Of a stretch of 64,000 nucleotides of DNA, positions 22,889-35,395 are shown one piece after another (position 1 is the stretch's first letter; every line of letters begins with the position of its first letter). The notes under the pieces are model-generated. The model had not been told where the DNA came from, did not search any database, and saw nothing but the letters and a program-made list of their open reading frames with translations. Both the position numbers and the translations under genes were made by a program. This DNA comes from Myxococcota bacterium (GTDB lineage: Bacteria > Myxococcota_A > Polyangia > Nannocystales > Nannocystaceae), in NCBI GenBank assembly GCA_039028615.1, contig JBCCHT010000001.1, positions 544,001-608,000 of the forward strand, written 5' to 3'.

Positions 22889-24325
22889 GTGGCATCGCTC
22901 CCCGTCGCGGGTCTCCCTGGTCTTCGCCCCATCCCCCTCATCGGTCCATCGCTGGCGCTGATCCGAGTGTTCACGGATCCGTTGCGAACCCTGCCCAAGC
23001 TCTACGCCGAGCACGGCTCCATCGCCGCCATGGGCCGAGGCGACGCCACCGTCGTGTGTGCGTTCGGGCCGACCTACAACCAACAGCTGCTCCCTCGCGC
23101 GCAGCAGTTCGAGGTCTCGACCGATCGCCCCATCCCGCTGCCCGACAACACCGCCTTGTCGCGGCTGTCGGGCAACCTTTCGCGCACCAACGGCGACGCC
23201 CACCGCCGGATCCGTCGCCTGATGATGCCCGCGTTCAGCAAGACGGCGATGAGCGGCTACCACGGGGCCATGACCGACGTCCTGACGACGCACATGAGTC
23301 GCTGGCGCCCGGGGGAAACCGTCGACCTGGCGCTGGCGATGCATCGCATCACCTTGGACATGTTCTCGACGTGCCTGTTCGGCGTCTCGCCCGAAGCCGG
23401 ACACCACGGGGAAGAAGGCCTCGCCCAGCTCGCGGCGGTGTTCCTGCGGGGCATGACTTCGCCCGCCACGATGCTGCTGCCGGTCGACTTGCCCTTCCTG
23501 CCCTTCGGCAAGCACATGCGACGCTGCGAAGAGCTGGAGCTGCGCATGCAGGCCCTCGTCGCCCAGCGGCGCGCCGAGGGCCTCGAGGGGCGCAAAGACG
23601 CGGTCTCGCTGCTCCTACGAAGCTGCGACGAGGACACCGAAGGGCACACGCCGCTCGACGAAGCGGAGATCATCGCCAACATGATCCTGCTGTTCCTGGC
23701 CGGCTACGAGACCACCGCCAACGGCCTGTGCGGTGCGCTGATGCTGCTGGCGCAGCACCCCGAGCGTCAGGTGGAGCTCCGCGAACAGCTCGACGGACGC
23801 TTCGGCGGCGGCACCCCGAGCGTGGAAGAGCTCGCCGAGCTTCCGCTGCTCGGCGCGGTGGTCAACGAAGCGCTGCGCATGCTGCCGCCGGTCTACATCA
23901 CGCTCGTGCGCCGCTCCACCGCGCCCTTCCGCCTCGGCCAGTGGGAGCTCCCCGCCGACGCGAAGCTCGTGCTCAGCCCGCTCATCACCCATCACATGCC
24001 CGAGGTCTGGGCCGATCCCAAGCGCTTTTCGCCCGCGCGATTTTTGGAGCGCAAGCCCACGCCCTACGAGTTCATGCCCTTCGGCGGCGGCTCTCGGCGC
24101 TGCATCGGGGCGGCGTTCTCCGACCTCGAGATGCGCCTGGGCCTGGCCATGCTGCTACAGCGCTTCTCCTTCGGCCTCGAGGCGGGCCAACGCATCGACC
24201 TGCAGACTCGGGCCATCACCCTGGGCGCCAAGGGCTCGGTGCGCACGCGGCTGTTCGCGCCCATCGACCAGCCGCGGCGTCCCACCTCGGTCGACGGGGA
24301 CATCCAAGACTGGGTCCGGTGGTGA
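22889..24325 (+). CDS. Cytochrome P450
   Basis: AGYETT (I-helix), EALR (ExxR), PFGGGSRRCIG heme-ligand motif. Confidence 0.95.
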   Translation: MASLPVAGLPGLRPIPLIGPSLALIRVFTDPLRTLPKLYAEHGSIAAMGRGDATVVCAFGPTYNQQLLPRAQQFEVSTDRPIPLPDNTALSRLSGNLSRTNGDAHRRIRRLMMPAFSKTAMSGYHGAMTDVLTTHMSRWRPGETVDLALAMHRITLDMFSTCLFGVSPEAGHHGEEGLAQLAAVFLRGMTSPATMLLPVDLPFLPFGKHMRRCEELELRMQALVAQRRAEGLEGRKDAVSLLLRSCDEDTEGHTPLDEAEIIANMILLFLAGYETTANGLCGALMLLAQHPERQVELREQLDGRFGGGTPSVEELAELPLLGAVVNEALRMLPPVYITLVRRSTAPFRLGQWELPADAKLVLSPLITHHMPEVWADPKRFSPARFLERKPTPYEFMPFGGGSRRCIGAAFSDLEMRLGLAMLLQRFSFGLEAGQRIDLQTRAITLGAKGSVRTRLFAPIDQPRRPTSVDGDIQDWVRW

Positions 24326-24334
24326 ACGCAAACA

Positions 24335-24370
24335 CACCCATCGAGCCGACCAAGGTCGGTCCGATGGGTG
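24335..24370. terminator. Stem-loop between convergent P450 and UbiA genes
   Basis: CACCCATCG...CCGACC-AA-GGTCGG...CGATGGGTG inverted repeat; no U-tract. Confidence 0.45.
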
Positions 24371-24398
24371 CGCGGTGTCGATATGCTCGCGGTCGTGG

Positions 24399-25247
24399 CT
24401 AGCTGAACAGCGACACGACGAGCCACAGGATCGGGTACAGCGCGAAGATCACGTAGAGCACCGAGGCCTGCGAGCGCGCCCGCTTCATGGGCACGAAGAG
24501 CCAGACGAAGGCGACGCCGCTAATCGCCAGCAAGCCCTGCATCTGCTCTTGGAAGCACAGCCAGGCCAGCACCACGAGCACGGCCCGGCACGCCCAGATC
24601 GCCCCCTTTTGGCCGAGCAGTACCGCGGTGGTGATCTTGCCCTGGATCTTGTCCGTCTTCATGTCGGTGATCTCTCCCGACAGCTGCAAGGCCGCGACGT
24701 AGAGCGACGCGATGACCGCGAGCACGAGCGACGGCCCGGGCAGATCGCTGACCATGGACGGCATGAACAGCGCGTGCAGGTAGACGTACACGACGATGAC
24801 CAGCTCCAGCGGGCCCCGACGGCTGAGCTGGAAGGGCTTTTCGTTGTAGCTCGCGTTGGCGAACAAGAACGATGCGACCAACGCCACGATGCCCAGCATG
24901 CTGGCCCCCGCCCACCACATGCAGGCACCCACCGCCAGCGTGGACAGCACGATCGTGCGCGGGACCCAGGCCATCTCCGTGTGCGAGTAGGCCATGCCGA
25001 AGGCGTTCACCAGCAGGTTGTCCTGCGTGGTCTTGCGCTTGCAGTGCGCATCCACGTCGGCGTCGCGCAGGTCGTTCCAGGCGCAGGCGATGAAGTTCAT
25101 GGGCACGACCACGATGGCCAGCCCCAGCCACAGCATCCAGCCCCGAAGATCGGCCGGGTCGGGGATGGCGAACATGTAGACCGCCGAGGTTACCCCCCAC
25201 ATCCCCGGTCGAGACATCATCACGTAGCGTCGAATCGCATCACTCAT
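24399..25247 (-). CDS. UbiA-family prenyltransferase
   Basis: NDLRDADVD and EITDMKTD Asp-rich motifs, GKITTAVLLG, multiple TMs. Confidence 0.85.
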   Translation of the reverse strand: MSDAIRRYVMMSRPGMWGVTSAVYMFAIPDPADLRGWMLWLGLAIVVVPMNFIACAWNDLRDADVDAHCKRKTTQDNLLVNAFGMAYSHTEMAWVPRTIVLSTLAVGACMWWAGASMLGIVALVASFLFANASYNEKPFQLSRRGPLELVIVVYVYLHALFMPSMVSDLPGPSLVLAVIASLYVAALQLSGEITDMKTDKIQGKITTAVLLGQKGAIWACRAVLVVLAWLCFQEQMQGLLAISGVAFVWLFVPMKRARSQASVLYVIFALYPILWLVVSLFS

Positions 25248-25251
25248 TGGT

Positions 25252-25752
25252 TCATTTGCCCTGTTCGGTAACTCGCCAGTCGTCGATGGCGAGCGCTTTG
25301 GTCAGCAAGCCCTCACACGCTGCCGCAGCAGCGTCTGCCCCCAAGACCCCTTGCGGACCGATGAAAATGGCCTCGGTATCGTTGCGCGCGTGCACCCGAT
25401 TCCCCACGATCAAGTTCGTCTGGAATTGCAGCAAGCGGCCGCTCATGCCGAGCGCCCGCGTATCGAGCGTGTAGCGGGTGTTCCGGCTCAACTCGCGGCG
25501 ATAGACGATGCGCTGGGAGGCCACGACGGCCTTCACTCCCTGGCTCCGCCAGCGCATGAGCGCCCCCGAGCGGATCAGCCAATCCGCGCGAGACAGCTCC
25601 ATGACCTGGGCGTACACCGCCTGGTTCATGTGCAAGTTGATGTCGATTTCGCCGAGGCGAACCCGACGATGGATCCGGGAAACGAGCGCTCCATCCCGCG
25701 CTACGGCTGCGCGTAGCAGGACGGGAAGTGTGCGACTGAGGTAACTCAACAT
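25252..25752 (-). CDS. Hotdog-fold acyl-CoA thioesterase-like protein
   Basis: EIDINLHMNQAVY motif, IVYRREL. Confidence 0.8.
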   Translation of the reverse strand: MLSYLSRTLPVLLRAAVARDGALVSRIHRRVRLGEIDINLHMNQAVYAQVMELSRADWLIRSGALMRWRSQGVKAVVASQRIVYRRELSRNTRYTLDTRALGMSGRLLQFQTNLIVGNRVHARNDTEAIFIGPQGVLGADAAAAACEGLLTKALAIDDWRVTEQGK

Positions 25753-26197: not shown

Positions 26198-27010
26198 TCA
26201 CCGCTGCGACGCGATGTCGTACCTCTTCGCCGGTCGGCGCCACAATCCCACCAGAAGAAGCAACGCCCACGCGCCGCCGAACCGATCACCCGACAGCCCA
26301 CAACTCGCACAACCTCGATCGCTCACTCCGACGTCGGTCTGCCCCCCGTCCCCACCGGAACCCGTCGTGCTCCCCGTGTTCGGGAGGCTGGGCCCGCCGC
26401 TGGTGCTGGTGGATTCTGGCCCCGTGCCGTCGTCACCCGCCACACCGGTCGATCCCACCGTGCCTGCGCCCCCGCTCGAGTCACCGCCCGTCGGCAGGCA
26501 CATCGCCCCCCGCCCCGTCTTCGCGCACTCGAGCGAGCCCTTGCACTGCTCGAGGAAGCGAGACTGGCCGCCGTTGTCGGCACACAGGCGCACAGCTCCA
26601 CGGGAACAGAAGGTCTCTCCCGGCGTGCAGACCTGCGGCTCGCACGTACTGCTGGCGAGGCAGTACTCGCCTCGGCCACAGTGCGCGTCTTCGAGGCAGG
26701 CTTGGCACGTCGAGTCATCGAGGTCGCAGTGGGGCTGCCGCGGCGGGCAATCGGCATCGGTGCGACACGCGAAGATGCACTCGCCATGGCTCGCGCACTG
26801 CATGCCCTCCGTGCAGTGCTCGTCCTCGACGCACTCCTCACAGGTGCCCTCGGGGATGTCGCAATACGGCGCCCAGTCGTTGAAGCAATCCTCGTCCTCG
26901 GTGCAGGGCGGATTGCCGATGTCGAAGATCGGAACGCCCGCGATGGCTGGCGAGGCCGCGACGAACAACGAGCCGCAGTACAGACCGGAGCCGAGCAGGA
27001 GCCTTCTCAT
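26198..27010 (-). CDS. Cys-rich exported protein with MYXO-CTERM-like sorting signal
   Basis: Signal peptide; CxxDxxC repeats; C-terminal GCASC...WALLLLVGLWRR. Confidence 0.7.
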   Translation of the reverse strand: MRRLLLGSGLYCGSLFVAASPAIAGVPIFDIGNPPCTEDEDCFNDWAPYCDIPEGTCEECVEDEHCTEGMQCASHGECIFACRTDADCPPRQPHCDLDDSTCQACLEDAHCGRGEYCLASSTCEPQVCTPGETFCSRGAVRLCADNGGQSRFLEQCKGSLECAKTGRGAMCLPTGGDSSGGAGTVGSTGVAGDDGTGPESTSTSGGPSLPNTGSTTGSGGDGGQTDVGVSDRGCASCGLSGDRFGGAWALLLLVGLWRRPAKRYDIASQR

Positions 27011-27116: not shown

Positions 27117-28190
27117 TTACTCGGCGGCCGGAGCGGGCGGCCAGACATGGGCAAAACGCTCGCTCAATCGCCCTTCTTCGTGCCCGAACCAGTACGGCGG
27201 TCGGGCCTCGGGGCCGTCATAGATCCGCGCCAACCAGCTGATTCCCCCGCGGCCGACGTAGTGATCGGTGCGGTCGAAGACCGGATCCGCCAGTGCCTCC
27301 GCAAGGCCGACCAGCACCCAGCCACGTTCGCGGAAGTCCGCCAGCACGTCGGCGAGGTGATCGGCCGCCAGTTCGTTGACGTGAAAGAGCACCGTCTGGG
27401 GTGTGTCGGCACCGGTCTCGTGGCGAGCCAGCAGCCGCCCCTGCTCCACCGCCTCGACCATGTGCGTGCGATAGGCCTGCACCACCTCCGCCTTCAGGAC
27501 TTCGTCGCCTTGCGTCATCGCCTCGCGATAGACGAAGGCCAGCAGCCATTCGGTGGTCGCCACCGTGACGTGGGCATTGTCGTAGCCCAGCGCGGCCAGC
27601 CGATCGCGAGCCTCGTCGCGCAGCTGCACCGTGTCCCCCTGGCTGAGGTAGGGGTAGCGAAACCACGTGGGCGGCTGCGGCAGACGGGCGCTGAGCTGCT
27701 CGTGGCAGCGGGCGACGTCGTCCATCCACGCATCCAGCGGCGTGTCGGCCAAGTTGGCGTGGCTGCTGGTGTGGTTGCCCACCACCATGCCCGCCTCGGA
27801 CCACAGCTCCACGCTGCGTTCCTGCGGCCGCAAGCGATCGCAGTTGAAGAATACGGAGGCGGGCGCTTCGAACTCGTGCAAGGTCGCCAGGATCCGCCGA
27901 TTGAGCGCCATGACCTGCTCGGGCGTGGGGCTCGGGCTGCCGCCATCGACATAGGGCGCATCGTCGAAGCTCAGGTGCACGCGCAGCGGGGCCTCGGCGT
28001 CCACGGGGGGCTCGGCGTCGGCTTCGGGCACCACGACGGGCTCCGGCCGCTCCGCGGGGACCGTGCTCGGCGTCGAGCAGCTGGCCACGACCGCCGCGAG
28101 CAACAACACGACGCCCAAGAGGAACCAGCCGTTGGACGCGACGTCACACGGGTCGGTGAATCTCGATCGCATCGGCACACGTCTCGACAT
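27117..28190 (-). CDS. Polysaccharide deacetylase (CE4/NodB fold), exported or lipoprotein
   Basis: LSFDDAP, GNHTSSH, FRYPY, LFHVN motifs; start overlaps the upstream GT gene. Confidence 0.85.
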   Translation of the reverse strand: MSRRVPMRSRFTDPCDVASNGWFLLGVVLLLAAVVASCSTPSTVPAERPEPVVVPEADAEPPVDAEAPLRVHLSFDDAPYVDGGSPSPTPEQVMALNRRILATLHEFEAPASVFFNCDRLRPQERSVELWSEAGMVVGNHTSSHANLADTPLDAWMDDVARCHEQLSARLPQPPTWFRYPYLSQGDTVQLRDEARDRLAALGYDNAHVTVATTEWLLAFVYREAMTQGDEVLKAEVVQAYRTHMVEAVEQGRLLARHETGADTPQTVLFHVNELAADHLADVLADFRERGWVLVGLAEALADPVFDRTDHYVGRGGISWLARIYDGPEARPPYWFGHEEGRLSERFAHVWPPAPAAE

Positions 28191-28977
28191 CGTCGGCGTA
28201 GGTCCCTCGATGGTACCCGAGGCGATAGTTCGCCAGGCAGACCGAGAAGTTGTCGTGCTCGGTGCCCGCGGTGTCGCCCCCCGCTCGCTTCGCGTTGCCG
28301 TGGCTGAGATGCACCACCCGACCCAGCGCCCGTCGCCGCGCCAGCCCGGACAGCTGCAGCCGCGCCACCAGGTCGAGGTCTTCCCAGCCCCAGCCCACCA
28401 GGTCCGAGTTCATGCCGTCGATGGCCTCGAAGTGGTCCCGCTGCAGCACGATGAGCCCGGGGCCGCTGCGGCTACCGTCGTCGAAGCGCAGGCGGTTGGT
28501 CTCGATCCACACCGTCTCGCCCTGCGCGGTCACGAGCCCCACCGCGTTGGCGATGCCCTGCACGCCCTGCACGCCCTGCACGGGGGTCGGCGAGACCTCG
28601 GGGGCCTCGGATTCCACGACCTGCTCGACGGTCACGAACTCACCGCTGGCGACGCGACCGAGCGCCTCGTCGACGAAGTCGGCGTCCAAGATCACGTCGC
28701 AGTCGAGGAAGAACAGGTGCCGCCCGCGAGCGGCGTGCACGCCCAGGTTGAGCGCCAGCGCCTTGTTGAAGCCGTCGGCGGGGACATCGACTCGGGTCAC
28801 GGGCACGGCCAGGTCACGCATCGCGTCGGCCAGCCACTGCTCGTCGCCCGCACAGTTGACGACCACGACCTCCACGCCATGGCGCTCGAAGATCGCCGCG
28901 TTGTCGGCCAGGGTTCGCGGCAGCTCGGCCCGATCGCACCACGGGATGATCACCGACAGCTCGGGGGCCACGGTCAT
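28144..28977 (-). CDS. GT-A fold glycosyltransferase (GT2 with GT7C-like C-terminus)
   Basis: LSVIIP, FNKALALNLG, FFLDCD (DxD), GWGWEDLD, VHLSH. Confidence 0.88.
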   Translation of the reverse strand: MTVAPELSVIIPWCDRAELPRTLADNAAIFERHGVEVVVVNCAGDEQWLADAMRDLAVPVTRVDVPADGFNKALALNLGVHAARGRHLFFLDCDVILDADFVDEALGRVASGEFVTVEQVVESEAPEVSPTPVQGVQGVQGIANAVGLVTAQGETVWIETNRLRFDDGSRSGPGLIVLQRDHFEAIDGMNSDLVGWGWEDLDLVARLQLSGLARRRALGRVVHLSHGNAKRAGGDTAGTEHDNFSVCLANYRLGYHRGTYADDVETCADAIEIHRPV

Positions 28978-30449
28978 GCCGCTGCCCCTCGCTGCTGCGC
29001 GGCGGCAGAGACCAGGAGCAAGCCATCATCGACCAAGCGTTGCAGCGTGTTCCACCGCGCCGTGCCCGGAGTGGCCAGCGAAGCAGCGTGCTGGGGCCCA
29101 GCGCAAGCCTCCACCCAGGGGTCATCCTCGAGGTCCACTGGCAACGCAGCCGGCCACGCGGGGTCGAGCAGTCGAAGCCGTCCGTCGCCCCAGCGCACCA
29201 AAGGAGCGGCCCACCGCACGTGGCTGTCGTCGGTGAGCGTCGGCGCGGCGGTTTCGACATAGCGCGCCACGGGCTCGGCAAACGACTCCCACGCGGGCAC
29301 GGTGGGCGGCAGCAGCGACGGCTCGGCCGACGGCGTGGGCGGTGAAGTCGTCACGATCGTCTCCCCCAAGCCCTGGGCTCGCCTCGCGATGGCGTCCTCG
29401 AAGGCCCGGCACAGAATGTCGGAGCACACCGCCTCCGAGTAGCCGGAGCTGGCGTGCTCGGCCGCGGCCACGCTCATGGCCTCGTGGCGGTCGGCATCGG
29501 ACATGATCCGCACGACCGCGTCGACCCCGGCGTCGGCATCGATGCGGATCCCGCTGCGGGTGATCCACGTGGGCATCAAGGCACCCGTCACCCCGGGCCG
29601 CACGGAGTCCTTGAGGCCACCGTGCGCCGCCCCCACCACGGGGACCCCACAGGCCATCGCTTCTACCGGCACGTAGCCGAAGTTCTCGTCGATTGCGCTG
29701 GTCGGGTGCAGCAACACGTCCATCGCCCCGAAGGCCATGGCCAGCTCCTCGTCGCTCAGGTTGGCGGGAAAGCAGACCAGATCCTCGGCGATCCCCAGCC
29801 GCTGCACGAGGGCCGCGATGTGTTCCCGATACTGGGCGCAGCCGTAGTCGAGCACGGGATAGCTGGTGTGGAAGTTGCCCACCACCAGCGCCACCACCCG
29901 CTGGGGAGCCATCTGCTCCCGGATGCGCGCGAAGGCGCGGAGGAACACGTGCAGGTTCTTCTGCGGCACCAGTCGGCATACGAAGCCCAGCACGTGGTCG
30001 CAGGGCGGAAGCTCGAGCTCCCGACGGCAGTCCCCCTGGTCGTAGGGGGTGAACAGCTCGGTGTCGACGGGCAGGGGCAGGCGCACCAGGTGCGGCGTGG
30101 GTCCCTCGCACAGGTCCTGCATGATCTCGGCGTCGGAGCGGCAGTTGAGCAGCAGCGTATCGTTACGATGCAGGTGCGGGAACCGATCGCGCAAGCCCGC
30201 GTGGCTCACCACCGGGCCCCCGTGCATGGCGAGCACGATGGGCGTATCGGCGGGCCGCGGTTGCGAGAACCACTGCGAGCCGTGAAACGACAAGATGGCA
30301 TCGACCGGTGGCGTGGGCTCGCCTTCGCCGACCGCATCGAGGTCGACCAGCTCGAAGCGTCGACGCAAGGCTCGCTCGTAGAACTTCCGGGTCCGCTCGA
30401 CGCTGACCCACTCGTGGGGGCCGAAGCCCCAAGTGCCAATGCGATGCAT
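28974..30449 (-). CDS. GT-B fold glycosyltransferase (GT4-like) with C-terminal wHTH/RRE-like extension
   Basis: RLVPQKN, DENFGYVPVEAMACGVPVV; C-terminal ...LQRLVDDGLL. Confidence 0.88.
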   Translation of the reverse strand: MHRIGTWGFGPHEWVSVERTRKFYERALRRRFELVDLDAVGEGEPTPPVDAILSFHGSQWFSQPRPADTPIVLAMHGGPVVSHAGLRDRFPHLHRNDTLLLNCRSDAEIMQDLCEGPTPHLVRLPLPVDTELFTPYDQGDCRRELELPPCDHVLGFVCRLVPQKNLHVFLRAFARIREQMAPQRVVALVVGNFHTSYPVLDYGCAQYREHIAALVQRLGIAEDLVCFPANLSDEELAMAFGAMDVLLHPTSAIDENFGYVPVEAMACGVPVVGAAHGGLKDSVRPGVTGALMPTWITRSGIRIDADAGVDAVVRIMSDADRHEAMSVAAAEHASSGYSEAVCSDILCRAFEDAIARRAQGLGETIVTTSPPTPSAEPSLLPPTVPAWESFAEPVARYVETAAPTLTDDSHVRWAAPLVRWGDGRLRLLDPAWPAALPVDLEDDPWVEACAGPQHAASLATPGTARWNTLQRLVDDGLLLVSAAAQQRGAAA

Positions 30450-30461
30450 GCTTTCGTGCTC

Positions 30462-31466
30462 CTATCGGGTGCGGGTCGTGGCCGGCTCGGCCAGCAAGAC
30501 GCGACTGCCCGCGTCATCAAAAACGAACGGGAACTCGGTGTAGGCGGCCAAGTCGCGCCGAATGGCGGATTGATGCTCGGGCGAGGCCACGAGCAACAGA
30601 CAACCCGTACCGCCCGCGCCCAGCAGCTTGCCGCCGAACGCACCTCGAGCGCGCGCCCGGTCGTAGGCCTCGTCCACATGGGCGGGAGAGATGCCGGCCG
30701 TCAGCCTTCGTTTGACCTGCCAGGTCTCGTCGAGCAACGCCCCCAGCTCCGCGACGGGAGCCCGACGGCGCAGGGCGGCCCCGAACGCTTCGCACTGACC
30801 ACGGATGGTGCGCAGGCGCTCGGTCTGATCCGCGCTGGGCTTCGCCAACGGCTTGAGCAGATCCCCCGCCCGCCGCTGCCCGCCGAGATAGAACAGCATC
30901 AACGACGCCTCGAGCTCGTCCCGGTACGCCACGGGAAGCTCCATCGGCCGCGCGTGCACCTGCTCGTCGGGCAAGAAGTGCAGGTTCTGGCAGCCCCCCA
31001 CCGCGGCGATGGTCTGGTCTTGGCGTCCGATCGGCTGCCCCAGGCGATCGGTCTCGAGTCGAAAGGCTCGCTCCGCCAGCGTGCGCCAGTCGGTGGGCTC
31101 TCCCCGCAGCCGAGCCAGCCCGTGCAGCAGCCCCACGCAGAAGCTCGACGACGACCCCAACCCGGTGCCCCCCGGGACGTCGCTCGAGGAGCTGATGTCC
31201 AGCGGCCCCGTCTGGCCCGTCGCACGCAGAGCCTCCCGCACGATCGGGTGCTCGATCGCGTCGATGTGCTCCGCCTCCTCGTACATGCCGCAGGCGATCC
31301 GAAAGCGCGGGCCCGACCCCTCCGGTCGTTGTCGCAGCATCACGTCGATGTGCAGGCCGATCGCCGTCGAGATCACCTCGCCGCCGTGCTCGCGATAAAA
31401 CGACGGCAGGTCGGTCCCGCCGCCCACGAAGCTGGTGCGTAGCGGCGTGCGGGTGACGATCAACAT
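30462..31466 (-). CDS. hddA: D-glycero-alpha-D-manno-heptose-7-phosphate kinase (GHMP family)
   Basis: TPLRTSFVGGGTDLP, PGGTGLGSSS, IGRQDQ, GGKLLGAGGTG; start at ATG 31466. Confidence 0.88.
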   Translation of the reverse strand: MLIVTRTPLRTSFVGGGTDLPSFYREHGGEVISTAIGLHIDVMLRQRPEGSGPRFRIACGMYEEAEHIDAIEHPIVREALRATGQTGPLDISSSSDVPGGTGLGSSSSFCVGLLHGLARLRGEPTDWRTLAERAFRLETDRLGQPIGRQDQTIAAVGGCQNLHFLPDEQVHARPMELPVAYRDELEASLMLFYLGGQRRAGDLLKPLAKPSADQTERLRTIRGQCEAFGAALRRRAPVAELGALLDETWQVKRRLTAGISPAHVDEAYDRARARGAFGGKLLGAGGTGCLLLVASPEHQSAIRRDLAAYTEFPFVFDDAGSRVLLAEPATTRTR

Positions 31467-32782
31467 GCGATCGCCTCCCGGGCCAGCCAGGCCGCGATCG
31501 CGGCGGGAAGATGGGGGAACCACCGAACGCCACGGCGCAGGGCCTCGGACCGAACGCCGTCTCCGAGCAGCAACGGCTCCACACCCGCTCGCATCCCCGC
31601 CTGCGCATCACAGAGGCTGTCGCCGAACATGGCCGAGGTCGCGACGTCGACCCGAAGTTCGCTCATCGCCCGCAGCAGCAGGCCGGGGGCGGGCTTGCGA
31701 CAGTCGCACTCGACCTTGAGTTCGACACGCTCGCCCTCGAAGCCGCGATGGGGATGATGAGGGCAGTAGTAGAGACGATCGAGGTACGCCCCCTCGGCGC
31801 CCAGCTGCCCCTCGAGGCGGGCATGAATCGCGCGCAGCTGCGTCTCGTCGCACATCCCTCGCGCCACGACCGGCTGATTGGTGACCACCACGACCTGCAC
31901 CCCCGCGCGATTGAGCGAACGAATCGCCGAACCGACGCCGGGGAGCAGCTCGATCTGCTCCGGGCGCGAGACATAGCCGACGTGGCGATTGATGGTCCCG
32001 TCGCGATCGAGGAACGCGGTACGCCGCGGCAAGGCAGCGCCCTGCACCAGGCCGCGCTCCCAGTCGTCACAGACCCGCCGATAGCGAGACGGCGTGCCCA
32101 TGTCCTTGAGGTACTCCGAGGTCTCGTAGCCGAAGATCGGCTCTCCGTCCCGATGGGCCCGGGCCAAGATGTCGTGCACCAAGTCGAGCTTGCGACCGGT
32201 GGGCAGCGCCCGGGTGAGCGCCGCGTCGACCACGAAGACCCCCGCGGTGACCAGGTTTCGGACTTCGAGCCCGAGGGGATGGGGCTTGGTGTGCAGCGCG
32301 ACCAGCCGCCCTCGCGGGTCGAGCTCCACCAGGTCGCTGTCGTGGGGGTGATCGTTGGGGTGCACGACCGCGGTCACCCGAGCCTCGTGTCGCCGATGCG
32401 CCTGCACCAAGGCGCGCAGGTCCATCTCGAACACCACGTCACCGAACGCCACCACCCGCGGGCCGTGACCGGGGACCAGCGAGAGGCAGCCTCCCGACCC
32501 CAGCGGCTGCGACTCGACGACGACCTCGACTCGGCAACGCTCGTCCGACCACCCGCGGGCCTGGACCTCGATCACCTCGGATCGGTGCCCGGCCAGGATC
32601 ACGACCCGACCGATACCCGCTCGCCGAAACTGCTCGATCTGACGGGCGATGAGCGGCACGCCGCCGATGGGCAGCATCGGCTTGGGCCGAGCTCGGGCCG
32701 CGTCACCCAGGCGAGTCCCCAGGCCTCCGGCCACGATCACCCCGATGGGGGCGTCCTCGAGTGCGTCACGCGTCGTGTTCAT
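31460..32782 (-). CDS. Fused heptose-1-phosphate nucleotidyltransferase (HddC-like) and heptose bisphosphate phosphatase (GmhB-like HAD)
   Basis: AGGLGTRL...PKPM N-terminal domain; FLDRDGTIN, VVTNQ, CPHHP...CDCRKP, GDS C-terminal domain. Confidence 0.9.
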   Translation of the reverse strand: MNTTRDALEDAPIGVIVAGGLGTRLGDAARARPKPMLPIGGVPLIARQIEQFRRAGIGRVVILAGHRSEVIEVQARGWSDERCRVEVVVESQPLGSGGCLSLVPGHGPRVVAFGDVVFEMDLRALVQAHRRHEARVTAVVHPNDHPHDSDLVELDPRGRLVALHTKPHPLGLEVRNLVTAGVFVVDAALTRALPTGRKLDLVHDILARAHRDGEPIFGYETSEYLKDMGTPSRYRRVCDDWERGLVQGAALPRRTAFLDRDGTINRHVGYVSRPEQIELLPGVGSAIRSLNRAGVQVVVVTNQPVVARGMCDETQLRAIHARLEGQLGAEGAYLDRLYYCPHHPHRGFEGERVELKVECDCRKPAPGLLLRAMSELRVDVATSAMFGDSLCDAQAGMRAGVEPLLLGDGVRSEALRRGVRWFPHLPAAIAAWLAREAIAC

Positions 32783-32791
32783 GGCGAGTCC

Positions 32792-34471
32792 TCAGGCGAC
32801 GGCGAAGACCTGCGCTTGGTACAGGCCGGGCTCCGCGTTCTCGTCGCGTAGCGCCATCAAGGCGTCTTCGATGGGGTCTCGGGTGTGCTCGATGAGCAGC
32901 AGCATCGCCTTGGCGACATCGGCCGGCGGCGTCTCGTGGGGCACGGCGACCCGCAGGCGACCGCGCCCGCGGCTCCATTGCGGCTGCCAGTCGACATAGA
33001 CCCCGCCGAGAAGCTCGCGCACGGGCTCGACCAACGTGGCGATCGTGGTCCGCAGCGGCCGAACCGCCTCGCTCTCGATGTGGATCTCGAGCGTGAAGAT
33101 GGGCTCGGTGTCACCGTAGTCGAGCAGCTCGTAGTGCAGGGCCTGGGGCCACGTGGCGGGCTTGATGTGACGGAAGTGGTGCCGGAATCCCCGAGGGGCG
33201 AGCTCAGCGGGGGCCTGGGCCGCATACGCCTCGAGCACCGCGGCGAACTCCGGCCGCATCGTCGTGGCCTCGGCCGAGGTGAACGCGTGCAACGAAGCCG
33301 GCTCCACCGTCTCCGTCGGCCCCAGCTTTCGACCGTCGAAATCGATGCAGAACTCGGCCCGCTGCTGCGCCGAGGGCATCCACGCCTGTGGGTACGCGGC
33401 CAGCAATCCGGGCAGCAGCGTCAGCGCCCGACGGTAGTGCCCGTAGAACAAGAACTGCTCGGCGAAGGGGCTGCGGGGCAGCCAAGCCGGCATCGCGCGG
33501 TTGATCGCGTTGGCGATGCGCACCATGGCGTTGCGGTGCAACGGCGAGATTTCGTAGCCCATGCCGCCTGCGAATGCGGCGAGCTCGATGTAGTGCCCGG
33601 CCAGGAACACGTGATCCTCGAAGCGATCCGCCACCGCCAGCGTGTCACGCAGCTCCTTGACCAAGCCGCCGGGCGCGACGTCCCGCTCCACCGTGGACCC
33701 GTCCAGGCGATCGAGCACCAGCGCCAGCAGCAGCATCAGGTCGAGCTGCCCGTCGAGGAAGGCCTGCGCCTGCGCCCGGTGGCGCTTCAGCTGCGGAATC
33801 ATGGCCGCCGCCGCGCAGATCCCCTCGGTGAGGTGGACCTTGCGACACACGCGGAAGTGACCGTGGTGATGGCCATCGATGGCCAAGTCCATGATCCCGG
33901 AGACGTCCATGCTGCGACCGGCGAGTTCGAAGCGGGTGTCCGGCTCGACTCCGAGGTGCGCGAGGGCGAAGAGCATGTGCCCCATCTCCGCGCCGTCGTC
34001 GGTCTGAATGGTGCGGCTGCGATCGTAGAGCTGTCGCAGGGTGCACCCGAGCCCGGGAATCTCGTGGTCGAACCCGATCCCCGCCATCGCGGCGTAGGCC
34101 AGGGTCTGGAACGGGTGAAAGTCACCGTCGCGATCGAACTGAACGAGGTAGGGCTCCCCCACCCGCTCGGCCCGGCAGTAGCTGACGAGGCCTTCGGTCA
34201 GCCGATGCCCCCCGACGACCGCGTCTCCCCAGCCGTTGAGGAGGTGGCAGTAGTGCGAGAGCATCGCGCCGTCCATGATCTCGCCCAGTCGTCGCTGCAT
34301 CGCGTCGACCACCAGCGCGTCGGCCTTGGCCGCGGCGGCTTCGTCGAGCGCGGGGGACTCGGCTTCGAGCTGGTCGTAGAAATCCGAGACGGCGTCGGCC
34401 TCGGCGTCGCTCAGCTCGACGGGCCACCACTCCAGGGCGTCGTGATCGTGCTCGTGGTTCGATGTACACAT
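32792..34471 (-). CDS. Hypothetical His-rich protein of about 559 aa in the heptose/peptide operon
   Basis: GAGG RBS before ATG 34471 (MCTSNHEHDHD); tight spacing to neighbours; no family recognised. Confidence 0.75.
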   Translation of the reverse strand: MCTSNHEHDHDALEWWPVELSDAEADAVSDFYDQLEAESPALDEAAAAKADALVVDAMQRRLGEIMDGAMLSHYCHLLNGWGDAVVGGHRLTEGLVSYCRAERVGEPYLVQFDRDGDFHPFQTLAYAAMAGIGFDHEIPGLGCTLRQLYDRSRTIQTDDGAEMGHMLFALAHLGVEPDTRFELAGRSMDVSGIMDLAIDGHHHGHFRVCRKVHLTEGICAAAAMIPQLKRHRAQAQAFLDGQLDLMLLLALVLDRLDGSTVERDVAPGGLVKELRDTLAVADRFEDHVFLAGHYIELAAFAGGMGYEISPLHRNAMVRIANAINRAMPAWLPRSPFAEQFLFYGHYRRALTLLPGLLAAYPQAWMPSAQQRAEFCIDFDGRKLGPTETVEPASLHAFTSAEATTMRPEFAAVLEAYAAQAPAELAPRGFRHHFRHIKPATWPQALHYELLDYGDTEPIFTLEIHIESEAVRPLRTTIATLVEPVRELLGGVYVDWQPQWSRGRGRLRVAVPHETPPADVAKAMLLLIEHTRDPIEDALMALRDENAEPGLYQAQVFAVA

Positions 34472-34481
34472 GGCGAGTTCC

Positions 34482-35084
34482 TCACTGGGCGGCGTTGGCC
34501 GGGCCCTGGGCCATCGCGTGGGCAATGGCGTGGCAGACCACGCTATGGGCGTCTTCGACGCTGAGATAGTCGTGTTGGGGGACGTGCACGCAGATGTCGC
34601 AGGCGGCCGCGAGACGACCTCCGTCGAAGCCCACGAGGCCGACGGTTCGGGCCCCGCGGTCCCGAGCGAGCTCGATGGCGCGTACGCAGTTCTCCGAGTT
34701 CCCCGAGGCCGAGATGGCCAGCACCACATCGCGTGGCTCGAGCGCGGTGAGCTGGCCGGCGAACACGTTCTCGTAGCCCGTGTCGTTGGCCAGCGCGGAG
34801 AAGGTGCTCATGTTGCCGTTGAGGCAGTGCGTGCGCAGGACGGGCGGCAGCCGAGCCGTCACCGCGCTCAAGTCGTTGGCCAGGTGCAGCGCGGTCGTGC
34901 TGCTACCCCCGTTGCCGAACAGGTGGGCCGTGCCCCCCCGGCGCCGGGTCTCGTCCAGCGCATGCACCGTGGCGGCGACTCGATCGGTGGGAACCCGAGC
35001 CAGGAGCTCGGCCACGCTTCGCAGGTGATCGTCGATGACCGACTCGAGGTCGAAGGCGTCAATGGTGGCGGCGTAGGGTTCCAC
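34482..35084 (-). CDS. gmhA: Phosphoheptose (sedoheptulose-7-phosphate) isomerase, SIS domain
   Basis: FGNGGSSTTALH, ALANDTGYENVF, AISASGNSEN, VEDAHSVVCH; start inferred at GTG 35084. Confidence 0.9.
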   Translation of the reverse strand: MEPYAATIDAFDLESVIDDHLRSVAELLARVPTDRVAATVHALDETRRRGGTAHLFGNGGSSTTALHLANDLSAVTARLPPVLRTHCLNGNMSTFSALANDTGYENVFAGQLTALEPRDVVLAISASGNSENCVRAIELARDRGARTVGLVGFDGGRLAAACDICVHVPQHDYLSVEDAHSVVCHAIAHAMAQGPANAAQ

Positions 35085-35194
35085 GGCAGTTTCGATCGTC
35101 GAAGGAGAGGGAGAGGAAGGAAGGGGTGACGACACGGGCCAGCAAGCCAGCCCGCATCGCCACCGATGCCGCACCGAAGCGCGACGATGGGAGC

Positions 35195-35395
35195 TCAGAA
35201 GGGCAGGCCGGGGAGACCGGGGAGGCGACCGATCGGCTGCACGCCGGGCAGGTCGCAGCCAGTGCAGCCCTGCACGCAGCAGCCGGGAACCGGCACGCCA
35301 CGGGCTCCGCCGGTGGCCGACGCCAGGTCGTCCTTGGACAGAGCCTTGCCGGGGGTGCGATTGCGACGCGAGAGAATGCGCTTGCGGTTCTTCAT
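35195..35395 (-). CDS. 66-aa double-glycine-leader precursor peptide (candidate RiPP precursor)
   Basis: GAGG RBS; MKNRKRILSRRNRTPGKALSKDDLASATGG | ARGVPVPGCCVQGCTGCDLPGVQPIGRLPGLPGLPF; LSxxxLxxxxGG matches the double-glycine leader consensus. Confidence 0.8.
   Translation of the reverse strand: MKNRKRILSRRNRTPGKALSKDDLASATGGARGVPVPGCCVQGCTGCDLPGVQPIGRLPGLPGLPF

Follow-up and report, generated by a model that had tools for sequence, protein, structure and literature searches.

Few types of glycosylated RiPPs (peptides that are made ribosomally and then modified post-translationally) are known. A 2021 paper names glycocins, NAI-112 and cacaoidin (PMC8068269), and a glycosylated lasso peptide has also been described. 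Glycocins have one S/O-glycosyltransferase that uses UDP-Glc or UDP-GlcNAc, nested disulfides around an interhelical loop, and thiol-disulfide oxidoreductases (PMC12457901). Fusions between a RiPP recognition element (RRE) and a glycosyltransferase have been noted bioinformatically, without characterization, in PMC7470986 and PMC12710340, whose passages on these fusions describe neither a precursor motif nor a product, and a daptide preprint mentions glycosyltransferases just as ancillary genes. We analyzed a 64,000-nt stretch (the window) of a Myxococcota bacterium of the family Nannocystaceae (assembly GCA_039028615.1, contig JBCCHT010000001.1, positions 544,001 to 608,000), in which eight minus-strand open reading frames (ORFs) encode a small peptide, an unnamed 559-aa protein (X559), a GT4 and a GT2 glycosyltransferase, sugar-nucleotide enzymes and a deacetylase. 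A first-pass annotation of the window had proposed that this operon attaches heptose to the peptide. We judge it reasonably probable that the locus directs the biosynthesis of a glycosylated RiPP whose family has not been described. In the literature searched, most of it open-access, we found no description of this precursor, X559 and GT4 combination, although supplements that could not be read might list the GT4, and no RiPP with a peptide-targeting GT4 or with heptose.

A precursor, X559 and two glycosyltransferases travel together

A locus search with a single sequence gave no loci, and an alignment of 50 X559 proteins retrieved 29 genome and 29 metagenome loci. The count covers 57 of the 58, as L063 nearly duplicates L062 and was left out; L079–L081, L083 and L084 repeat contigs already counted, L085 has only the C-terminal domain, and L082 was used in alignments and the tree only. 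Among the 34 well-flanked loci (at least 4 kb on either side), 32 contain a precursor gene: the strict motif identifies it in 27, and in the other 5 it satisfies a broader rule that was written after those loci had been seen. The other two are archaeal, with the barrel domain of X559 only, in genomes without a peptide or GT4 match. The 32 precursor-bearing loci include GT4 in 31, GT2 in 30, a CE4 deacetylase in 17 and a C39 exporter in 9. Of 101 related genomes, the same six contain full-length X559, strong matches to the peptide and the C-terminal domain of the GT4; the locus and genome sets overlap and include close kin, so these counts are non-independent. The peptide was found in none of 400 sampled genomes of the phylum, so the precursor family is rare. 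These results indicate that precursor, X559, GT4 and GT2 travel together across phyla, and the small ORFs that the first-pass annotation had suggested seeking beside homologues are indeed there. Hosts include Pseudoalteromonas luteoviolacea DSM 6061, Enhygromyxa salina DSM 15201, Corallococcus, Chitinophaga and Fulvivirga, and the closest named relatives are Nannocystaceae and Myxococcales entries.

We then consider the peptide itself. A GAGGA ribosome-binding site lies 9 nt upstream of its ATG, and its leader terminates in ...LSKDDLASATGG at residue 30, with the double glycine (GG) at residues 29–30, in agreement with the leader, 36-aa core and ribosome-binding site originally annotated. The core contains four Cys, one Thr and no Ser, and its calculated mass without modification is 3529.78 Da. 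Its G+C content at third codon positions (0.84) is similar to that of neighbouring genes, residues 1–44 differ from the three closest relatives by 11–13 synonymous and 6–7 non-synonymous codons, and the strict motif occurs only twice in six frames of the 12.3-Mb genome (~0.003 per 20 kb), one occurrence being this precursor. This codon usage, the mostly synonymous differences and the rarity of the motif indicate that the ORF exceeds chance. Residues G38, C39, Q42 and C44 are invariant among 36 aligned precursors, the family motif reading GCCVQGC here. A peptide profile search returned 97 clusters at 50% identity, 95 of them with C-x-x-Q-x-C, a conservation that is partly circular because the profile was built on the motif. 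Seven variant precursors from LanB-containing loci provide a freer test: all have Gln followed by Cys-Cys within two residues, and one has lost the first Cys. Leaders and tails are highly variable, and many homologous precursors stop 2–8 residues past the motif. Pfam and NCBIfam scans gave no match for the precursor, and comparison of the 36 precursors with bacteriocin models gave weak leader-type matches (best E 0.007). Tandem copies, two-core precursors (P0088, P0089 and L058:2905-3225) and a weak Nif11-type leader (P0162) also occur in the family, and P0122 has a twin-Arg-like N-terminus by eye, with no Pfam match.

The gene for X559, whose product the first-pass annotation listed as unknown, is the one that defines the family. 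The protein has no match in Pfam or NCBIfam; a search with it returned 79 proteins, itself among them, of which none carries a Pfam domain or a functional name, and a profile search added no proteins and no names. Foldseek gave no match at E 0.001, its weak matches being type III secretion chaperone-like folds that by size probably correspond to the C-terminal domain. The N-terminal helical (alpha/alpha) barrel spans about residues 40-370 and the alpha/beta domain about residues 400-545. Residues H76, H119, Q122, H165, C209, H213, E216, H293, E296, H345 and R348 are invariant, and X559 is probably a metal-dependent barrel enzyme. Since the C-terminal domain is also found fused to a NucS-like protein, we did not count it as peptide-specific. 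In loci L073-L077 this domain follows an N-terminal domain of unrelated type, which in L073 shows weak similarity to NucS (E 6e-5). An AGE-type epimerase, an idea taken from the His spacing, received no support, and no profile similarity to the LanC tested was found, the target being shallow in both cases. Stand-alone barrels with the His/Cys/Glu set intact and no Pfam match occur in Micrarchaeota (L036:8664-9902 and L037:9794-10852), in genomes with no peptide or GT4 match.

The GT4 ends in a fused domain with an RRE-like winged-helix fold. By this predicted fold the domain supports the RiPP reading of the first-pass annotation, as does the conservation of the small ORF. The analogy with glycocins drawn in that annotation points at the GT2; the predicted peptide-recognition domain sits on the GT4 instead. 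The GT2 matched nine NCBIfam families, none of them a glycocin transferase, and its weak PDB matches are beta-1,4-galactosyltransferases. In one database protein (P0179) the precursor leader runs straight into the GT4 RRE-like domain, which may be a misassembly or a deletion.

Table 1 Features of the cluster, in window coordinates
Feature	Position	Strand	Remarks
Precursor peptide, 66 aa	35195..35395	-	Leader 30 aa ending GG, core 36 aa, variable Pro/Gly-rich tail
Core motif G38-C39-C40-V41-Q42-G43-C44	35264..35284	-	From alignment of precursors
GmhA-like SIS sugar-phosphate isomerase	34482..35084	-	Asp/Glu variant at E68/Q175 positions
X559, unnamed family	32792..34471	-	N-terminal helical barrel and C-terminal alpha/beta domain
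HddC-like nucleotidyltransferase fused to GmhB-like HAD phosphatase	31460..32782	-	Family-level profile matches
HddA-like GHMP sugar kinase	30462..31466	-	ATG at 31466
GT4 (GT-B) glycosyltransferase	28974..30449	-	Invariant E255/E263; C-terminal RRE-like winged-helix domain fused
RRE-like domain of GT4, residues 388-487	28989..29288	-	By fold likeness
GT-A glycosyltransferase (GT2 / Glyco_transf_7C type)	28144..28977	-	DxD; weak likeness to beta-1,4-galactosyltransferases
CE4 deacetylase, accessory	27117..28190	-	Apparent lipoprotein signal, read by eye without a predictor run

All eight ORFs were found between 27117 and 35395 in the order annotated, the peptide first and then gmhA through the deacetylase. 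The peptide and gmhA genes are 110 nt apart; from gmhA onward the genes abut or overlap as described (gmhA-X559, 10 nt; X559-hddC/gmhB, 9 nt; hddC/gmhB-hddA, overlapping; hddA-GT4, 12 nt; GT4-GT2, -4 nt; GT2-CE4, -29 nt). A promoter scan of the locus gave no sites, and five terminator-like sites are in line with chance (mean 3.2). The cluster is flanked by genes for a P450, UbiA, a thioesterase, an M23 peptidase and a trypsin-like protein. The P450, UbiA prenyltransferase and thioesterase genes are clustered at 22889-25752 and do not recur in related loci; nor does a Cys-rich repeat protein at 26198-27010 (minus strand), about 100 nt downstream of the deacetylase, which has weak TraA similarity (E 1e-8, far below cut-off). 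In Fulvivirga and Chitinophaga the cluster (L021, L035 and L022) adjoins genes for thioesterases and proteins like non-ribosomal peptide synthetases, and in Fulvivirga it additionally has a GT9, an extra GT2 and a putative rhamnosyltransferase.

The sugar donor and the heptose question

The cluster contains an isomerase, a GHMP kinase, a phosphatase and a nucleotidyltransferase. Their annotation as gmhA, hddA, gmhB and hddC held at the family level in Pfam and NCBIfam, whereas no model reached its NCBIfam cut-off (bits/cut-off: gmhA TIGR00441, 101/209; hddA NF049969, 107/600; hddC NF049965, 45/300; gmhB NF006506, 148/178). Of the first-pass heptose claim, the four donor-type genes stand and heptose itself is not established; heptosylation of the peptide is plausible but unproven, and we put the chance that heptose ends up on this peptide somewhat below even. 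Comparable secondary-metabolite clusters yield octoses as well as heptoses (PMC12945683, PMC11401394, PMC9978623).

A stronger version, in which GDP-D,D-heptose on the peptide defines the family and hosts that lack a cassette in the cluster make it with genes located at other sites, appears somewhat unlikely to us. It accounts for heptose-type genes in 20 of the 32 loci, for the cluster gmhA-like gene being the sole GmhA-family match of its genome, and for an hddA-like gene that, within the host's family, is found only in cluster-holding genomes (5 of 60, plus the host). GT9 heptosyltransferase-family genes in two loci and GDP-mannose transferases among the PDB matches of the GT4 point the same way, and both septacidin and hygromycin B contain heptoses (PMC11401394, PMC9978623). 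Of 10 hosts whose fetched locus lacked gmhA, 9 have a gmhA match at E <=1e-33, which in one (L017) proved to lie in the cluster itself; GmhA is, however, widespread in Gram-negative bacteria, and a copy outside the cluster is therefore weak evidence. Several results weigh against heptose. The four-gene cassette is complete in 11 of the 32 loci and absent in 12, although some cassettes are truncated where the flanks end; gmhA had no match in one of the 10 hosts tested, and hddA was not found with the query used in 3 of 5. A WecB-like UDP-GlcNAc 2-epimerase is present in 13 of the 32 loci, only one of which also has gmhA. Finally, the GmhA Zn ligands are H64, E68, Q175 and H183, with E68 and Q175 reported to be conserved and their mutation to lower activity (PMC5705639), and the cluster protein has H, D, E and H at these positions, sedoheptulose 7-phosphate being a candidate substrate. 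The D/E pair is found in 20 of 21 cluster GmhA copies and also at L141 and L152. At L152, outside the family, it sits beside hddA, hddC and gmhB, which suggests that the variant is probably active. Because the cassette varies, heptose-type in some loci and WecB-like in others and almost never both, the sugar module looks exchangeable between clusters; in a quick, provisional X559 tree the cassettes look lineage-linked by inspection.

Proposed pathway and competing explanations

Gene content, conservation and folds were computed, and from them we infer every chemical step of the following pathway. The precursor leader would dock on the RRE-like domain of the GT4, a retaining enzyme that may place the first sugar on C-x-x-Q-x-C, most likely on a Cys thiol and otherwise on the Gln amide. 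The Cys part of the originally proposed Cys/Thr acceptor is thereby favoured; the Thr part is unlikely, as the residue after the first two Cys positions is Thr in 79 of 95 family members but Val in this peptide, and the single Thr of this core falls outside the conserved columns. The GT2 would extend the first sugar to a disaccharide, and X559 could make the family-defining change at the Gln/Cys motif, for example by cross-linking it or by activating it for glycosylation. An exchangeable donor cassette would supply the sugar, here a GDP-type heptose or a related higher-carbon sugar, and in other hosts HexNAc (N-acetylhexosamine)-type genes or host donors. Lastly, a C39 ABC exporter would cleave after GG and secrete the product, from within the cluster in some hosts and from elsewhere in this genome. 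Three C39 exporters are encoded in this genome. The one most similar to those of the family (G000:C18:214226-218394, with HlyD; 51-57% identity) lies on another contig, adjoins an ATP-grasp ligase-like gene (by eye) and might act in trans.

No C39 exporter adjoins the locus. The GG leader is frequent in the family without being general: 54 of 97 members have it, and it is found in 9 of the 11 loci that encode a C39 exporter. In L013 the precursor and X559 are located apart from GT4 and GT2. Not all of the competing explanations exclude this glycosylated-RiPP pathway. The peptide may be a RiPP substrate with an unusual sugar, for instance an amino-sugar or octose joined to Cys through sulfur in the manner of lincosamides, which X559 would build or move as an epimerase, transaldolase or transglycosidase; we regard this as distinctly unlikely. 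It is less probable still that the peptide is modified by X559 only, for instance as a Cys-rich metal binder, or is a carrier or scaffold, while the glycosyltransferases build a released glycoside or glycolipid. The L013 arrangement would fit this, the vicinal CC...CC would suit metal binding, and among families the GT4 matches MshA best (E 1.5e-28, far below cut-off), a transferase that acts on small molecules. However, the RRE-like domain is hard to explain unless the GT4 acts on the peptide, GG leaders and C39 exporters imply export of the core itself, and the co-occurrence of both glycosyltransferases with the precursor argues the same way. A surface-glycan operon (lipopolysaccharide, capsule or S-layer) with an incidental small ORF is very improbable: GmhA/HddA/GmhB/HddC sets do lie in polysaccharide-type loci without X559 (L152 and L153), but neighbourhood conservation has already largely refuted this reading, the peptide being conserved across phyla under purifying selection. 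The absence of a flippase, noted in the first-pass annotation, is borne out on this contig, as all five PF13440 matches in the genome lie on other contigs; no flippase or polymerase family appeared among the recurring neighbours scanned, in which no search was aimed at polymerase or chain-length families.

The glycosylated-RiPP family, with its unassigned enzyme, is apparently undescribed and testable, directly so because the cluster occurs in named, cultured strains such as P. luteoviolacea DSM 6061. To the few known glycosylated RiPP types it would add an enzyme family that has no name and whose conserved site resembles a metal site, and perhaps a peptide that carries a higher-carbon sugar. 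The putatively leader-guided GT4, with its 7-residue target, could also serve as a site-specific glycosylation tool.

Comparison with described systems

LmbN, LmbP, LmbK and LmbO of the lincosamide pathway probably resemble GmhA, HddA, GmhB and HddC gene by gene. The lincosamide thio-octose cluster (PMC12945683) and those of septacidin and hygromycin B (PMC11401394, PMC9978623) likewise make their own higher-carbon NDP-sugar, and LmbT is a GT-B S-glycosyltransferase (PMC12945683). Their acceptors are ergothioneine, a nucleobase and an aminocyclitol, in contrast to a ribosomal peptide here. As for the known RRE-glycosyltransferase fusions, that of PMC12710340 (2025) is PF00535 (GT2) rather than GT4, and the legible Fig. 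S7 hosts of PMC7470986, one of which is an Acidobacterium, differ from our cultured hosts, the table being garbled. In cacaoidin, a class V lanthipeptide, a GT2 and a GT4 have likewise been proposed to assemble the disaccharide that the peptide carries, but the scaffold is a lanthipeptide and the disaccharide is a Tyr-linked deoxyhexose one, and the word heptose is absent from the main text of that paper (PMC8068269); the present locus has no lanthipeptide enzymes.

Glycocins (sublancin, glycocin F and thermoglycocin; PMC12457901) share with this family a Cys-containing precursor, usually a GG leader, which in this family a C39 exporter would cut, and a sugar that here is probably on Cys. Unlike them, this cluster has two glycosyltransferases, an RRE-like domain on the GT4, a barrel enzyme of no named family and dedicated donor cassettes, and the family's Cys residues lie close together within a motif of 7-9 residues whose Gln is invariant. 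Judged from the sequence, nested disulfides enclosing a loop between two helices do not fit this peptide, as all four Cys lie within residues 39-47 and are followed by a Pro/Gly tail, and no thiol-disulfide oxidoreductase was found in this locus or among 65 scanned neighbours, a subset of all neighbours. With respect to class I lanthipeptides, LanB is present as an accessory in 6 of the 32 related loci, and in five of these the precursors are variants rich in Ser/Thr in which Q-x-C-C or Q-C-C is retained; L019, L042, L043, L053 and L054, which combine the X559/GT4/GT2 module with class I lanthipeptide genes, are candidate glyco-lanthipeptide hybrids. At this locus neither the eight genes nor those flanking genes that were scanned include a LanB, LanM or LanKC dehydratase or a cyclase. 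By the features tested, the system is glyco-RiPP-like, but neither a glycocin nor a lanthipeptide.

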